From Promethearchaeia archaeon (lineage in GTDB: Archaea > Asgardarchaeota > Lokiarchaeia > Sigyniarchaeales > SOKP01), in NCBI GenBank assembly GCA_046497275.1, contig JAWOFX010000161.1, forward strand, positions 1 through 12,980: 12,980 nt of DNA, read 5' to 3'. Numbering within the stretch: the first letter of the stretch is position 1; every line of letters begins with the position of its first letter. The position numbers and the translations under genes are program-made. Under the pieces are notes generated by a model that saw nothing but the letters and a program-made list of their open reading frames with translations, made no database searches and had not been told where the DNA came from. Below are positions 59 to 8,280 of this stretch, piece after piece.

Positions 59-181
59 TGGCGGCCCAGGGGGGGATTTTCTTGATCTTAGCAAACTAAA
101 ACCATATCGAACCCCTATCCCTCCGCGGGATAACTGGATTTGAAGTCCAGCGTCAGAGACCACTCCAGACCGCCCCGGGCC
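59..181 (-). tRNA. selC: tRNA-Sec (anticodon UCA), 9/4 fold, with a 29-nt T-loop intron; 123-nt gene, 94-nt predicted mature tRNA, CCA encoded
   Basis: Manual fold of the reverse complement: 9-bp acceptor stem GGCCCGGGG/CCCTGGGCC, discriminator G, CCA; long D stem with TGGT loop; 6-bp anticodon stem GCTGGA/TCCAGT with loop CT-TCA-AA (anticodon 143-141); 6-bp variable arm TATCCC/GGGATA; 4-bp T stem GGGG/CCCC. SelB lies 3.3 kb away. Confidence 0.97.
77..105 (-). other. 29-nt tRNA intron at position 59/60 (T-loop), relaxed bulge-helix-bulge motif
   Basis: 36 nt separate the T-stem strands instead of 7. They fold as central helix TTCG/AGAA (one G.A pair), 3-nt bulges ATA and AAT, and a 9-bp hairpin TGGTTTTAG/CTAAGATCA. 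Cutting after the 2nd nt of each bulge restores the canonical T-loop TTCGATT. Confidence 0.9.
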
Positions 182-3436: not shown

Positions 3437-4855
3437 ATGGACATTAAAAAGAAAACTCCAGTGAATTTAGGATTATTTGGGCATATCGATAGCGGAAAGA
3501 CTGCTATAGCAGAGGTGCTATCAGAAATAATTTCAACAGCGGGTATTGATGCCCATCCTCAGAGTAAGGAACGAGGGATTACAATAGATTTAGGATTTAC
3601 AAGTTTTATTCTTGATAATTTTTTAGTAACTCTTGTGGACGCTCCTGGACATGCTGATTTATTGAAAATTAGCGCCTCCTCAATAGAAATAATCGATGTA
3701 GCACTGATAGTTATAGATATTAATAAGGGACCTCAAATTCAGACCGGTGAGCATTTAGTTATGATTGAATCTTTAGGAATAGAAGAGATAATTGTTATCC
3801 TAAATAAAACTGATTTATTTAAAGGAAATATTGAAGATCAAATTAATAATACTCGAAAATTCTTTGAGTCAACATCTTTTGGTCCAAATATTCCTATATA
3901 TGCCGTATCTTCAAAAGAAACAACAGGATTTGAATCATTAAAAACAGGTATTCTAAAGAAAGTCAATACTTTAGAATTAAAACGCGCCTACAATGAAGAT
4001 ACAGTTATACCAATAGACCATCATTTTTCAGTTAAAGGAATAGGGTCTGTATTGACGGGCACAGTTGTCTCTGGAAGAGTTCATTTAGGAGATCAATTAT
4101 CAATCCTTCCTATTAATATAAAGGGAAGAGTGAAGAATATACAGATCTTTCATGAAAATGTAGATTCTGCGGGAGCTGGGCATAGAGTTGGACTAAATAT
4201 GAAAAATATTGATGTGAAAAATATTTATCGTGGATGCTATGCGACAAATAACATAAATGTATTTGAGTATTGTACCATTGCAAATGTGAAAGTTAAGAAG
4301 TCAGAAATCTTTAAACCGAAAATAAATTTTGGCACCCAATTACATATAACTATAGGTATGGCAACTTCTGTAGGTAAAATCTATCCTTACAATGAGAGAG
4401 ATAATAAGAGGATTAGAAAATCCATTTCAGCTGAACAAACTGAATTTAATGCGATAATTTGGTTTAATGAAAAGGTTTTAATGAGAAAAAAGAGAAATAT
4501 TATGCTTCTTAGTCGATTAGATTTACCTCCAACCACTTTAAGAATTCTAGGATCAGCTAAACTCATCCAGATTCTTGATAAACCCCCTATTTTGCATAAA
4601 TACAAAACTAAAATAGGTAAAATCACAAATCCTGATCATTCTCAAGGAATCATATGTACTGGATTGGCTAGAAGCGTCGAAGGTGCGAGGAAGATTGTCG
4701 GTCGTGAATTAGAATCGCCATTTACCAAAATCAAAGATACATTTGGAACGAAGGGGGCAGTTATCGTAGGTGTAGAAAAAGGAAAAGCAGAGATTCAAAA
4801 AAATGATCCAGTAATTCTTAAAGAATTACGATATTTCAAGTTAAAAAACATTTAA
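3437..4855 (+). CDS. selB: Selenocysteine-specific translation elongation factor SelB/EFSec (archaeal type, with domain IV)
   Basis: G motifs GHIDSGKT, RGITIDLGF, DAPG and NKTD. Domain II has DHHF and HRVG (the SelB-type Arg where EF-Tu/EF1A has Asn). Short archaeal domain IV with TFGTKG. tRNA-Sec nearby. Confidence 0.95.
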   Translation: MDIKKKTPVNLGLFGHIDSGKTAIAEVLSEIISTAGIDAHPQSKERGITIDLGFTSFILDNFLVTLVDAPGHADLLKISASSIEIIDVALIVIDINKGPQIQTGEHLVMIESLGIEEIIVILNKTDLFKGNIEDQINNTRKFFESTSFGPNIPIYAVSSKETTGFESLKTGILKKVNTLELKRAYNEDTVIPIDHHFSVKGIGSVLTGTVVSGRVHLGDQLSILPINIKGRVKNIQIFHENVDSAGAGHRVGLNMKNIDVKNIYRGCYATNNINVFEYCTIANVKVKKSEIFKPKINFGTQLHITIGMATSVGKIYPYNERDNKRIRKSISAEQTEFNAIIWFNEKVLMRKKRNIMLLSRLDLPPTTLRILGSAKLIQILDKPPILHKYKTKIGKITNPDHSQGIICTGLARSVEGARKIVGRELESPFTKIKDTFGTKGAVIVGVEKGKAEIQKNDPVILKELRYFKLKNI

Positions 4856-4895: not shown

Positions 4896-5318
4896 TTGGC
4901 AAGTAGTCATTGGTCTGAATTAGAAGGAGTTGACAAGGAAGTATTAGCTGAATTAATGAAAAGCTTAGAATGGTTGGAAAGCTCAACAGATTTAGAGGGA
5001 ACTGCGATAGTTTCCAAAACAGGTCTTCGAGTAGCCAGTTCTGAGACAGCTGACGTTGTTGCGGACATATACAGCGCAAGTCCGGCAACCTTACTCTCAT
5101 TAGGAGAGAAAATTAGTAATAGTTTAGACCAAGGGGAACTTCGTGAAATTGTAATTAGAGGGACGAATGGGTATACCATTATAGTTGTAGGTTCTGCCGA
5201 GAAAAACTTTATGTTATTTACTAATTGTAAAAAAGGTTATAAACTCGGATATTACTTTCATAAGATTCGAAAGGCTTTTCGGTCTATGGAACCGCTTTTA
5301 GATAAGATTAAAGCTTAA
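4896..5318 (+). CDS. Roadblock/LC7 (MglB-like) domain protein
   Basis: Typical pattern: EGTAIVSKTGLRVASS, helix, then ELREIVIRGTNGYTIIV beta strands and a C-terminal helix. TTG start with SD GAGGT at 4884-4888. Confidence 0.85.
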   Translation: MASSHWSELEGVDKEVLAELMKSLEWLESSTDLEGTAIVSKTGLRVASSETADVVADIYSASPATLLSLGEKISNSLDQGELREIVIRGTNGYTIIVVGSAEKNFMLFTNCKKGYKLGYYFHKIRKAFRSMEPLLDKIKA

Positions 5319-5361: not shown

Positions 5362-7125
5362 TTAAGATTTAAAAGTCCATTTAACAGTATCTCCACTCTT
5401 AAGATTATATTTATTTGACGCAGTACTGACAGACTCTCCATTAATAAGATATATCCAATTTCCATCTTTATAATCAATACTTTCAATTAAGTATCCCGAT
5501 TCCCCATAATCTGTATATTCTACAACACACCATTTGTTTAAAGCATCAAAAGCGGTTGTTTCATAGTTATCCAATTCAAAATTTTCTTTGATCTTGATTG
5601 TTCCATTCCCATAATCAACAATTAAATCAATATCGCTGACATATTCTTCGGGAGTATTAATTTCAGGGGTGTTTATACTTGTAGCAAATATCAATAGTGA
5701 ACTAAAACTCGCAATAGCTATAATCGCAATTATCGCATATTTATTATACTCTTGGATGAAATTATTGTATTTCGAAGCAATTAAGATTGCTGAAAAAGAT
5801 ATCAATGAGATTGATCCTATTATCAGATATGGAAAAATTTCTTCTAAAAAATTTTTTGATGGTACTATATTATTTGATTTACTTAGATCTGGATCATAAC
5901 CCTCTATTACAAATTCCAATAGAAAATATGACAGAGATGTTTTAGAATACAATAATAGTCCTGTCTTTTTTTCATAAATCATTTCGTTCTTTTGGGAACC
6001 CTCATCTTGAGAAAAAGTTATTCTAATAGTCAGATTTGTTTCTTCAATATCAACATCCCCAGAAATAAATCCACTTTCTTCTTGTATAGCCAATTGTTTA
6101 ATTCTAGTTATATTATCCATCTCGGGTATAAGAAAACCAGATTGAAAATCATTATAACCAAGTATTAATGCAAAAGCTACTTCTTTATTAGATATGTTCA
6201 TCTGAGTGAAATTAAGATGAAGAGAACCTTCAGATATGTCATAAATTTTAATATCATAATATGGAATTTTCTCGGGAAAGACATCACCTGTATCATTTTC
6301 AAAACGATCAAAATACCCAGTAAAATTGATACTAATTAATCCTCCGGGACTTGTTTCATAATATCCTTTTGGATTATAATCATACCAATAAGCAGGTTGA
6401 TCTAAAAAATCATTTACGCTGTAATTAAATGTATTATTAAAATCTAGACTAAAATTTAGAGATGAAATTTCGAGTTCAAAACCGAAAGCATTGGTATATG
6501 CCCATACCAACAATCCACTTTTTTGCTCATAAATTAAGGAAGTTTTTTGAGAATTATCATCTGCTTTAAAATCTAAGGAAAAAAAATGATAAGATTTTTC
6601 GATGATCACGTCTCCTTTTACAAATCCTTCAGTTGCTTGTTCTGCATAGATTTCTGAAATTGTTAAGTTACTTATAGGTATTAAGAATCCTGGTTGAAAT
6701 GAATTATAACCAAGAATTAGATTTCTACTGATTTCGGTATTGGATCTATTAGATAACGTGAAATTAGTTTCAAGATTAGACTTCAGAATTTCAATATCCA
6801 TCCATGGAATAGGTTCTTCATAAGGAGTTGCATCATTAGGATGTTTATCGTAAAAGCCCGTTAAGTTTATTTTTATTTGTCCTCCCGATCCAGATTTAAA
6901 ATCACCCTCATAAGATGGTTCAGGATAGGCAGTCATATTATACCAACCAGCGGATCCACCAAATTTGGAGATATTATAAACATAGTGAGTATTTAGATTT
7001 AGGTTCTTATAATAATTTTCTGGAGTTTCTCCATTTGCTTGTACGAATATTCCATTAGAATTAAAAATTAATTGAAAAAATATTAAAAATAAAGTGAAAT
7101 ATAATAAATTTTCCTTATTTTTCAT
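5362..7125 (-). CDS. Cell-surface membrane protein: signal peptide, two tandem ~180-aa domains, two TM helices, C-terminal DUF4430 (transcobalamin-like) domain
   Basis: Signal peptide ending VQA; internal repeat (aa ~45-225 and ~230-410); TMs at aa ~430-450 and ~463-484; aa 499-587 match the DUF4430 pattern (LIVDYGNG, TAFDAL, YLIESI, WIYLING, LKSGDTVKW). Confidence 0.8.
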   Translation of the reverse strand: MKNKENLLYFTLFLIFFQLIFNSNGIFVQANGETPENYYKNLNLNTHYVYNISKFGGSAGWYNMTAYPEPSYEGDFKSGSGGQIKINLTGFYDKHPNDATPYEEPIPWMDIEILKSNLETNFTLSNRSNTEISRNLILGYNSFQPGFLIPISNLTISEIYAEQATEGFVKGDVIIEKSYHFFSLDFKADDNSQKTSLIYEQKSGLLVWAYTNAFGFELEISSLNFSLDFNNTFNYSVNDFLDQPAYWYDYNPKGYYETSPGGLISINFTGYFDRFENDTGDVFPEKIPYYDIKIYDISEGSLHLNFTQMNISNKEVAFALILGYNDFQSGFLIPEMDNITRIKQLAIQEESGFISGDVDIEETNLTIRITFSQDEGSQKNEMIYEKKTGLLLYSKTSLSYFLLEFVIEGYDPDLSKSNNIVPSKNFLEEIFPYLIIGSISLISFSAILIASKYNNFIQEYNKYAIIAIIAIASFSSLLIFATSINTPEINTPEEYVSDIDLIVDYGNGTIKIKENFELDNYETTAFDALNKWCVVEYTDYGESGYLIESIDYKDGNWIYLINGESVSTASNKYNLKSGDTVKWTFKS

Positions 7126-7153
7126 TTTACTAATAATTTTTCTAAGTCATTTT

Positions 7154-7173
7154 AATAGGCTAGATTACCTATT
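7154..7173. promoter_or_regulatory. Operator-like palindrome, copy 1 (AATAGG-N8-CCTATT)
   Basis: Perfect 6-bp inverted arms, and a 16/19 match to the second copy 61 bp away. It lies just downstream of a minus-strand TATA-like TTTATATA (7186-7179). Confidence 0.55.
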
Positions 7174-7215
7174 TTTTTTATATAAATTTAGGAATATTGA
7201 TTGATTTATAAATTT

Positions 7216-7234
7216 ATAGGTTAGATTTCCTAAT
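7216..7234. promoter_or_regulatory. Operator-like palindrome, copy 2 (ATAGG-N8-CCTAAT)
   Basis: ATAGGTTAGATTTCCTAAT versus ATAGGCTAGATTACCTATT of copy 1. It lies just downstream of TTTATAAA (7205-7212). Confidence 0.5.
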
Positions 7235-7546
7235 AACAAAAATAGAATATTTTCGGTAAATGATACTTAAAATATACTTAAGGTTGAATTAATATTAATT
7301 AGACTAATAGAATTATTATATACACTTTTAAAATTGTTAAACTTAATATTATACTAACCAATAAAAAAATTTTTTCTTAAACTTGAGGTTTTTTTTTGAA
7401 TCTGAAATTAAATAGCCACCAAAATATTCTTCTTATTTAAATTTATTATAATGGTTCGATTTCTCATATTTTTTAGTAAAAAGGATAATTTTAAAATAGT
7501 CTAAATTCTATTTATAAATATAAAATGTAAATCGGTCAACTTATCC

Positions 7547-7554
7547 TATAAATA
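7547..7554 (+). promoter_or_regulatory. Candidate TATA box for a leaderless ECF S-component transcript
   Basis: TATAAATA lies 25-32 nt upstream of ATG 7579, and there is no SD before the ATG. Confidence 0.35.
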
Positions 7555-7578
7555 TTTGTTCAAAAATAGAATATTATA

Positions 7579-8280
7579 ATGAGTATAGAAAACGATAATG
7601 AATTAACAACTAAAAACGGATACAGAGAATTAAAAGATAACTTTAAATCAATTAAAGCGGGAGAGAAAAGCCAAGAAACATCAGATATATACGAAGATGA
7701 GAATCATGTTCATTCAGTATGGCTAGAAAAATACTCATTTCGGATTGCCTTACTGAGTATGTTTACAGCGTTTAGTGTTGTCTTAGCTTATATCTTAGCA
7801 TCAATCCCAAATATCGAATTGTTCACCTTATCAATCTTCTTAGGGGGGTATATAATGGGGAAAAAAGAAGGAGTGGTAATTGGCTCATTAAGCGCCCTAA
7901 TTTTCGTATTTTTTAATCCATGGGGGGTATCACCACTTCCCTTGATAAGTTATCAAATACTTCATTACGCTCTTACAGGATTAGCAGGAGCATTAACACA
8001 TGATTTTCTGAAGGAAAAGTCTTATTATCGTCCACAAAATGATTTATATACATTACCTCTTATGAGTTTATTTGGATTTATAGGATTACTCATTACTCTT
8101 TCGTTTGATTTAATAACATCTATAATTGGTGTAGTTATTGCTTATGGAACATTAGATGCATTTTTCTTATATTTTCTTAGCGGAATTGTTTTTACAACGG
8201 TTCATGAAATAGGAAATACCTTAGGATTCATATTCATCTTACCGGGTTTGATCCAGCTCGTTTATAAAATGCTCCATTAA
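7579..8280 (+). CDS. ECF transporter substrate-binding S component, CbrT-like (probably cobalamin/corrinoid)
   Basis: Hydrophobic multi-TM core with S-component hallmarks: IALLSMFTAFSVV, IPNIE, GYIMGKKEGVVIG, NPWG. About 50-aa hydrophilic N-terminal extension. Substrate is inferred from the PN motif and the DUF4430 neighbour. Confidence 0.8.
   Translation: MSIENDNELTTKNGYRELKDNFKSIKAGEKSQETSDIYEDENHVHSVWLEKYSFRIALLSMFTAFSVVLAYILASIPNIELFTLSIFLGGYIMGKKEGVVIGSLSALIFVFFNPWGVSPLPLISYQILHYALTGLAGALTHDFLKEKSYYRPQNDLYTLPLMSLFGFIGLLITLSFDLITSIIGVVIAYGTLDAFFLYFLSGIVFTTVHEIGNTLGFIFILPGLIQLVYKMLH

Follow-up and report, generated by a model that had tools for sequence, protein, structure and literature searches.

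A divergent DUF4430 surface protein and CbrT-like ECF S-component as a candidate corrinoid uptake module of Asgard archaea

We analysed a 12,980-nucleotide stretch of DNA from a Promethearchaeia archaeon (GenBank contig JAWOFX010000161.1, hereafter the window), which is contig C165 of a 3.85-Mb genome with ~31% guanine plus cytosine (GC) that is 98.9% complete. Two divergent genes in the window, one at 5362-7125 on the minus strand encoding a 587-residue protein (P0001) and the other at 7579-8280 on the plus strand encoding a 233-residue protein (P0002), very probably form a single uptake module of the kind called energy-coupling factor (ECF). For the whole proposed system with a corrinoid as its cargo, which is our preferred reading, we put the probability at roughly 0.6. 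The module is an archaeal variant of uptake systems of the transcobalamin-like/ECF-CbrT kind, which were predicted for bacteria in 2007-2009. The gene pair and its 453-bp spacer (7126-7578) are as claimed in a preliminary description of the window, and the homologues of the window's proteins carry the names Promethearchaeota or Lokiarchaeota.

Cultured Asgard archaea grow very slowly and only in syntrophy, and the cofactors that these organisms must import bear on cultivation and on models of metabolic dependence before eukaryogenesis. All phylum-wide counts given here come from a sample of 121 Asgard genomes in 25 families. B12-binding domains were found in 117 of these genomes and the corrin biosynthesis protein CbiC in 2, which makes corrinoid import a phylum-wide need. 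To our knowledge, no route for it has been described in Asgard archaea, and the module is a concrete and testable candidate.

P0001 was delimited from its open reading frame and translation and is made up of a predicted signal peptide, two beta-rich repeats, a transmembrane (TM) hairpin and a DUF4430 domain. Full-length homologues with 40-95% identity are present in many Promethearchaeota contigs, and the AlphaFold2 model has a mean confidence (pLDDT) of 84.8. A hydrophobic stretch at residues 10-28 (7042-7098, minus strand; Kyte-Doolittle window ≥1.6) is predicted to be a signal peptide or anchor; the model places a helix at residues 2-23, followed by a linker of low confidence. Two TM helices at residues 429-453 and 461-486 (5668-5841, minus strand), separated by a 7-residue loop, are predicted from hydrophobicity to form a hairpin, and the corresponding model helices span 426-453 and 455-483. 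Because of this hairpin the repeats and the DUF4430 domain should face the same side of the membrane, which would be the outside if the N-terminal signal is used. All but one of the 16 N-X-S/T sequons lie within residues 31-424, a distribution that, as judged from the sequence, is typical of an archaeal extracellular protein. The DUF4430 domain is likewise predicted to be extracellular from the N-terminal hydrophobic signal, the two TM helices that precede the domain and the 15 ectodomain sequons.

The C-terminal domain (residues 494-587; 5365-5646, minus strand) is a DUF4430, or transcobalamin-beta-like (SLBB), domain by family match and fold. On residues 523-586 PF14478 scores 36.2 bits (cut-off 23.8), and a six-frame search of the genome found this to be the sole DUF4430 copy (40 bits). 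Structural alignment of residues 494-587 with VIA-align gave Z scores of 13.2 for 3u7z, a bacterial DUF4430 protein, 12.8 for haptocorrin (4kkj), 12.2 and 11.7 for transcobalamin (2bb6 and 5no0) and 11.5 for intrinsic factor (2pmv), with root-mean-square deviations (rmsd) of 1.7-2.5 Å over 88-94 residues. Foldseek returned the same fold matches with a probability of 1.0, while other beta-grasp proteins reached Z scores of only ~7. Taken with the Pfam match, the Z scores of 12-13 for the modelled domain place it specifically in the transcobalamin clade, as had been proposed for this end of the protein. The model strands at 535-539 and 545-550, which follow a helix at 525-532, can be read as the clade-specific hairpin. 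Every solved protein of known ligand that matches the domain is a corrinoid binder. A profile search of the PDB with the domain returned nothing significant and did not align it residue by residue with transcobalamin.

The N-terminal two thirds of P0001 had been taken for a mere surface scaffold. Instead, this region corresponds to a conserved third component of the system. It consists of two beta-rich repeats of ~190 residues each, at residues 31-228 (6442-7035, minus strand) and 229-415 (5881-6441, minus strand), which are 39% identical in self-comparison (E 1e-34). Neither repeat matches a Pfam or NCBIfam model. When a hidden Markov model (HMM) was built from the repeats, its first pass detected a protein of 235-300 residues encoded next to the DUF4430 and S-component genes in seven of the 12 other sampled families (E 2e-18 to 2e-8), and an eighth of the 12 was found after one HMM iteration. 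Each of these stand-alone proteins carries a single repeat-type domain between a signal peptide and a C-terminal TM helix. At three such loci (L074, L081 and L096) the DUF4430 protein is also separate, with ~150 residues and one N-terminal TM helix, and in a sister genus (L096) this split version is found where the fused gene lies here, between L15 and Roadblock. By sequence comparison, P0001 is thus a fusion of a duplicated repeat protein with type-I anchoring and a DUF4430 protein with type-II anchoring, and the joining of a C-terminal anchor to an N-terminal one accounts for the TM hairpin. The repeat represents a new protein domain and may itself bind corrinoids. Attempts to assign its fold were rejected: Foldseek gave just LolA-like and BFA1 matches at TM-scores of ~0.1-0.3, and the VIA-align match to 4fvs (Z 7.2) had an unconvincing rmsd of 5.2 Å. 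A feature search of the Atlas with the repeats returned unnamed clusters only.

P0002 (7579-8280, plus strand), which begins with a charged extension of 45 residues, matches S-components in fold and CbrT in sequence. Its model has a pLDDT of 75.7 that is low only at residues 1-36. Foldseek searches with this model returned the S-components PanT, ThiT, FolT, RibU and BioY at probabilities of 0.96-1.0 and target TM-scores of 0.51-0.69, and on the model the protein has the S-component fold. Among solved proteins the only significant sequence relative was chain A of 6FNP (profile E 3e-7, single sequence E 2.6e-5), which is CbrT, the membrane protein of 182 residues in the ECF-CbrT structure from Lactobacillus delbrueckii; the next solved S-components had E values >6. 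P77-N78 and H209/G212/N213 of P0002 are invariant in its family and align with the PN and H..GN of CbrT. The one other clear S-component, encoded on contig C169, matches 4HZU_S, leaving P0002 as the only CbrT-like S-component of the genome. Its earlier designation as CbrT-like stands: among the solved specificities, P0002 groups with CbrT alone. Many of its homologues (50-85% identity) have PF12822 or PF07155 on record. Predicted complexes of the S-component (residues 45-233) with the second TM helix and DUF4430 domain of P0001 (residues 455-587) scored 0.25 and 0.16 against a mark of 0.32 and speak neither for nor against binding.

Relatives of P0002 in bacteria (P0253, P0263, P0265, P0296, P0313 and P0377; L071, L075 and L077) occur in two forms. 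Some are fusions of 766-902 residues in which an N-terminal S-component is followed by a Plug domain and a TonB-dependent beta-barrel. Others lie in operons where the S-component gene is followed first by a gene for a 612-653-residue protein that matches no Pfam family and then by a TonB receptor or cytochrome c gene. The fusions pose a topological puzzle, as they join a carrier of the inner membrane to a receptor of the outer one.

The DUF4430 gene and the S-component gene are linked throughout the phylum. DUF4430 was found in 84 of the 121 genomes, the S-component in 69 and both in 65; where both were present, they were on the same contig in 62 genomes and no more than 2.5 kb apart in 59. 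Four arrangements were seen: a divergent pair, DUF4430 followed by the S-component after a gap of 84-200 bp, DUF4430 followed by the beta-domain gene and the S-component, and the S-component followed by DUF4430. Outside Lokiarchaeia the genes are often in tight operons with gaps of 84-400 bp, and the genes that surround them are wholly different between lineages. The pairing also recurs in independent contexts (L074, L081, L080, L073 and one Logan contig). Conservation of the pair, which the preliminary description had proposed as a check, therefore holds across the phylum in several gene orders and contexts.

The genes share a putative control element as well as a location. The divergent spacer (18% GC) contains two palindromes of the form TAGG-N8-CCTA. 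The first, TAGGCTAGATTACCTA (7156-7171), lies 31 bp upstream of the P0001 start codon, and the second, TAGGTTAGATTTCCTA (7217-7232), lies 61 bp from the first and is a putative operator for a rightward S-component promoter. The motif occurs 11 times in the 3.85-Mb genome, twice in this spacer. In the comparison of 59 related Lokiarchaeia loci it was found within 500 bp upstream of the DUF4430 gene at 31 sites in 24 loci, where ~0.1 would be expected. At the 20 loci where other genes separate the pair, it was upstream of the S-component in nine and of the DUF4430 gene in five, and in L012, L018 and L022 it preceded both. Further copies lie within the divergent spacer at L073 and L081 and ahead of the S-component gene at L096. 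L084, from a distant family, has twin copies in front of three module genes, those for the beta-domain protein, the S-component and the DUF4430 protein. The preliminary description had not linked an operator to the pair; the palindrome follows both genes when insertions part them. A B12 regulon could not be built from the palindrome, the other nine genomic sites being mostly inside open reading frames or upstream of one cold-shock gene and one histone-deacetylase-family gene.

We know of no cobalamin riboswitches in archaea. In an Rfam scan of the window at E values up to 1, tRNA-Sec was the sole hit, and the 453-bp spacer gave no riboswitch match. A candidate for the protein that binds the operator is a DUF4443/PH0730-type winged-helix protein, whose gene adjoins the module at eight loci from at least five other families (L074 7717-8382, L081 7992-8678, L086 5092-5742, L087 7743-8378, L088 5399-6040, L090 5652-6281, L091 4913-5593 and L093 1988-2647). 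In the genome studied here, the DUF4443 protein is encoded by a single unlinked gene (G000:C59:60451-61119). The conserved operator could lead to a B12-responsive regulator of archaea.

The spacer has other features of its own. Two exact 15-bp direct repeats, CAAAAATAGAATATT, at 7237-7251 and 7561-7575, bracket 309 bp of AT-rich DNA, the second of them ending just before the start codon of the S-component gene. Spacers of adjacent pairs in relatives measure ~110-400 bp, a range that the spacer would fit without the bracketed segment, and this segment may be an insertion with a target duplication. That it is a miniature inverted-repeat transposable element was considered and rejected, there being no second copy in the genome or the related loci. 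More generally, the divergent spacer of Lokiarchaeia is a hot spot for insertions (a subset of L012-L056), where the recurrent inserts are a 154-residue AHSA1-like protein (17 loci), a protein of ~135 residues (12 loci) and one of ~234 residues with a faint match to DUF6144 (seven loci).

Pfam and NCBIfam scans found no EcfA or EcfT gene in the window, in line with the earlier remark that no ECF ATPase or T subunit is adjacent, and these genes were located on another contig. The genome has two CbiQ/EcfT genes. One is part of a CbiM-CbiQ-CbiO cobalt/nickel system, and the second belongs to a stand-alone EcfA-EcfA'-EcfT cluster (G000:C156:17915-20399; L008 3916-6400). The ATPases of this cluster best match TIGR04520 and TIGR04521, and it is flanked by DHH-family and CGI-121-family genes with no S-component gene adjacent. 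From its gene content it is a classic group-II shared energiser, which P0002 would be expected to use. The suggestion that the S-component relies on a shared energiser thus fits the genome, and EcfT/CbiQ was found in 121 of 121 sampled genomes. At one locus (L084/L098; G002:C65) the module itself lies beside an EcfT gene and ~1 kb from a 378-residue CobT-like DBI_PRT gene. The G002 genome comes from the only sampled Asgard genus with CbiC, and its module is also near an AsnC-type regulator and a NifX-like FeMo-cofactor-binding protein.

The genome combines heavy B12 use with corrinoid auxotrophy. It has 20 matches to B12-binding domains, in small corrinoid proteins and in many proteins of radical-SAM size, and CbiC, CobS and CbiB/CobD were not found in the 98.9%-complete assembly. 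Taken together, these results mean that the organism must import complete corrinoids. A phyletic correlation with B12 synthesis carries no information, CbiC being nearly absent from the sampled Asgard genomes. The sole family without a B12-binding domain (f11) is also without both module genes. On contig C136 (L009 1477-11871) an MttB-family methyltransferase gene is found with divergent CbiM and CbiQ-CbiO genes and with a Peripla_BP_2/FecCD/ATP-binding cassette (ABC) importer, the permease of which best matches BtuC; a cobalt/nickel transporter is thus kept there though the genome is without corrin synthesis.

We propose that P0001 is exported and held in the membrane by its TM hairpin, so that the two beta-rich domains and the SLBB/DUF4430 domain would be displayed outside and capture the cofactor there, on the surface of the cell. 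In transcobalamin and its bacterial homologues B12 is sandwiched by an alpha/alpha toroid, whose place the beta-rich domain would take here. The cofactor, most likely cobalamin or other cobamides, would then be handed to the CbrT-like S-component, which would dock on the shared EcfA-EcfA'-EcfT of contig C156, and ATP hydrolysis would drive import. Both genes would be controlled from the divergent spacer by a repressor that binds the twin TAGG-N8-CCTA operators, the DUF4443 winged-helix protein being the candidate. The most specific version of this model, in which an Asgard tripartite surface capture system for B12, with the beta-rich domain for the toroid and the CbrT-like S-component, is governed not by a riboswitch but by a repressor at TAGG-N8-CCTA that is possibly a DUF4443 corrinoid sensor, is speculative and we hold it only tentatively. 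If it is true, the archaeal lineage that is closest to eukaryotes would have its first defined route of B12 uptake and its first transcription factor responsive to B12.

CbrT was reportedly predicted by Rodionov et al. in 2009. Santos et al. proved in 2018 that the ECF-CbrT transporter of L. delbrueckii binds and transports cobalamin and cobinamide, and its genes lie in an nrdJ-cbrS-cbrT-pduO cluster (PMC5997447; PDB 6FNP). CbrS is probably a DUF4430 protein, because in L. rhamnosus a DUF4430 gene adjoins rtpR (PMC9963975). The preliminary description had treated the accompaniment of CbrT by DUF4430-type proteins in Firmicutes as established; the backing that we found is indirect and consists of the cbrS gene order (PMC5997447), the rtpR neighbour (PMC9963975) and an operon prediction by Burroughs et al. 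(PMC1796856). Like ECF-CbrT, the Asgard module has a group-II S-component that would share one EcfAA'T, the PN and H..GN motifs and a small accessory gene beside the S-component. Unlike it, the module is in an archaeal host with no B12 enzyme genes or riboswitch at the locus, its accessory protein is fused through a TM hairpin to two beta-rich domains, and its control is apparently by a protein operator; identity between the two S-components is ~25%.

Burroughs, Balaji, Iyer and Aravind defined the SLBB superfamily in 2007 and predicted that extracellular SLBB proteins of the transcobalamin clade in CbiO/CbiQ operons are B12 scavengers (PMC1796856). The bacterial SLBB/ECF operons and the Asgard module both join an extracellular SLBB domain to an ECF-type importer in hosts without B12 synthesis, and capture followed by import is predicted for both. 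They differ in that the bacterial partner is an alpha/alpha toroid, whereas the Asgard partner is a ~190-residue beta-rich domain of no known family, and in that the Asgard energiser is encoded elsewhere in the genome. The L. sakei operon lsa1836-1840, which is ECF-like and includes transcobalamin alpha- and beta-like proteins (Verplaetse et al., bioRxiv 10.1101/864751), also has an S-component and a secreted transcobalamin-beta-like protein with a proposed hand-over of a tetrapyrrole-type ligand. However, it is bacterial, its reported cargo is heme, its A/T module is dedicated and in the operon, and its partner is an alpha toroid. A functional parallel is offered by BtuG/BtuH and BtuB of Bacteroides, where high-affinity surface binders feed a membrane transporter (PMC10404256, PMC13616437), although the folds are unrelated (a beta-propeller in BtuG, a TonB-dependent BtuB) and the relay is at the outer membrane. 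Four differences set the Asgard module apart from the bacterial versions: the beta-rich domain in place of the toroid, the DUF4430 fusion (in part of Lokiarchaeia), the remote energiser and the apparent control by a palindromic operator with no riboswitch.

Several observations weigh against the reading as a corrinoid importer. P0002 scored 21.9 bits (E 2e-4) against PF12822, which is under the cut-off of 30.7, and it matched no NCBIfam model; its low identity to CbrT counts on the same side. Pfam, NCBIfam and Rfam scans found no B12 enzyme, adenosyltransferase or riboswitch in the window. As no B12 gene or cobalamin riboswitch is present at the locus, we file P0002 as CbrT-like and not as an orthologue of CbrT; its genomic tie to B12 is indirect, through the linkage to DUF4430 and the single relative with a CobT-like gene ~1 kb away. 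Three families (f16, f18 and f21) are rich in B12-binding proteins yet have no module, which means that the module is not the only corrinoid route. In the genome studied here, the BtuC/BtuD/Peripla_BP_2-type ABC importer that adjoins the MttB-family gene could alone supply corrinoids. Finally, adjacency within Lokiarchaeia is by itself weak evidence. The 59 loci share one syntenic block (L30, L15, S-component, DUF4430 gene, Roadblock, SelB, zinc-ribbon), yet the pair inside it is often interrupted: among the 51 loci scored for this, 21 have the two genes separated by 1-4 kb in which unrelated genes lie (AHSA1-like, HxlR-like and others).

The syntenic block, in which the S-component always lies by L15 and the DUF4430 gene by Roadblock/SelB, would be explained if the two genes were neighbours by inheritance only and had no joint function. 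This explanation is disfavoured and very improbable: in other Asgard families the linkage persists with different neighbours and orders, the operator motif follows both genes, and together with the third component these results overturn the doubt. A different cargo deserves more weight. The main rival is that an identical architecture and mechanism serve heme or another tetrapyrrole or metal chelate, which we consider unlikely. Heme uptake fell when the transcobalamin-like L. sakei operon was deleted (bioRxiv 10.1101/864751), S. lugdunensis has a heme transporter of the ECF type (PMC7299338), and the bacterial relatives of P0002 that are fused to or encoded with TonB-dependent receptors, near cytochrome c genes, also count towards heme and against corrinoids. 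Burroughs et al. doubted a B12 role for the archaeal SLBB proteins, which they cautioned might scavenge a different metabolite (PMC1796856). That doubt was built on the archaea then known, which were B12 makers, and it does not apply to Asgard archaea because 119 of the 121 sampled genomes, like the genome studied here, are without CbiC. Hemin, moreover, is not accepted by CbrT (PMC5997447), the DUF4430 domain's solved matches of known ligand all bind corrinoids, and one relative has the module beside the CobT-like gene.

It is similarly unlikely that the cargo is some other, unrelated small molecule, with the fold being a generic ligand-binding beta-grasp and the beta-rich domain setting the specificity. 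SLBB superfamily ligands are diverse (PMC1796856), the beta-rich partner has no known fold relative, the window holds no B12 gene, and similarity of the DUF4430 domain to transcobalamin escapes profile searches of the PDB; against this stand the Pfam DUF4430 match, the gap between Z scores of 12-13 for haptocorrin and transcobalamin and ~7 for other beta-grasp proteins, and the fact that the nearest characterised S-component is CbrT. An alternative that concerns energy rather than cargo, and that we rate slightly lower again, is that the S-component works alone in the manner of BtuM, fed by the surface protein without an ECF module. Solitary B12 transporters of the S-component type are documented (PMC6072759), and neither the window nor most related loci have an EcfA or EcfT gene next to the pair. 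But the genome is not the ECF-free background associated with BtuM-type carriers, since EcfT/CbiQ is present here as in every sampled genome; its EcfAA'T cluster has no S-component gene of its own beside it, an EcfT gene adjoins the module in L084, and CbrT of L. delbrueckii without its ECF module failed to support growth (PMC5997447).

The remainder of the window contains a tRNA-Sec gene, two Nudix genes, a zinc-ribbon protein gene, SelB, a Roadblock/LC7 gene and the end of a ribosomal protein cluster (L15, L30 onwards). The tRNA-Sec (63-181, minus strand) and the archaeal SelB (3437-4855, plus strand) lie 3.3 kb apart, SepSecS is ~6 kb further out in one relative (L007 15921-17288), and this neighbourhood of the selenocysteine genes is conserved at every one of the 59 Lokiarchaeia loci examined. 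The tandem Nudix paralogues (295-978 and 1078-1812, both on the minus strand) best match the coenzyme A pyrophosphatase model NF007980, below its cut-off. The Roadblock/LC7 gene (4896-5318, plus strand) comes directly after SelB, an adjacency that is kept in every related locus reaching that far.

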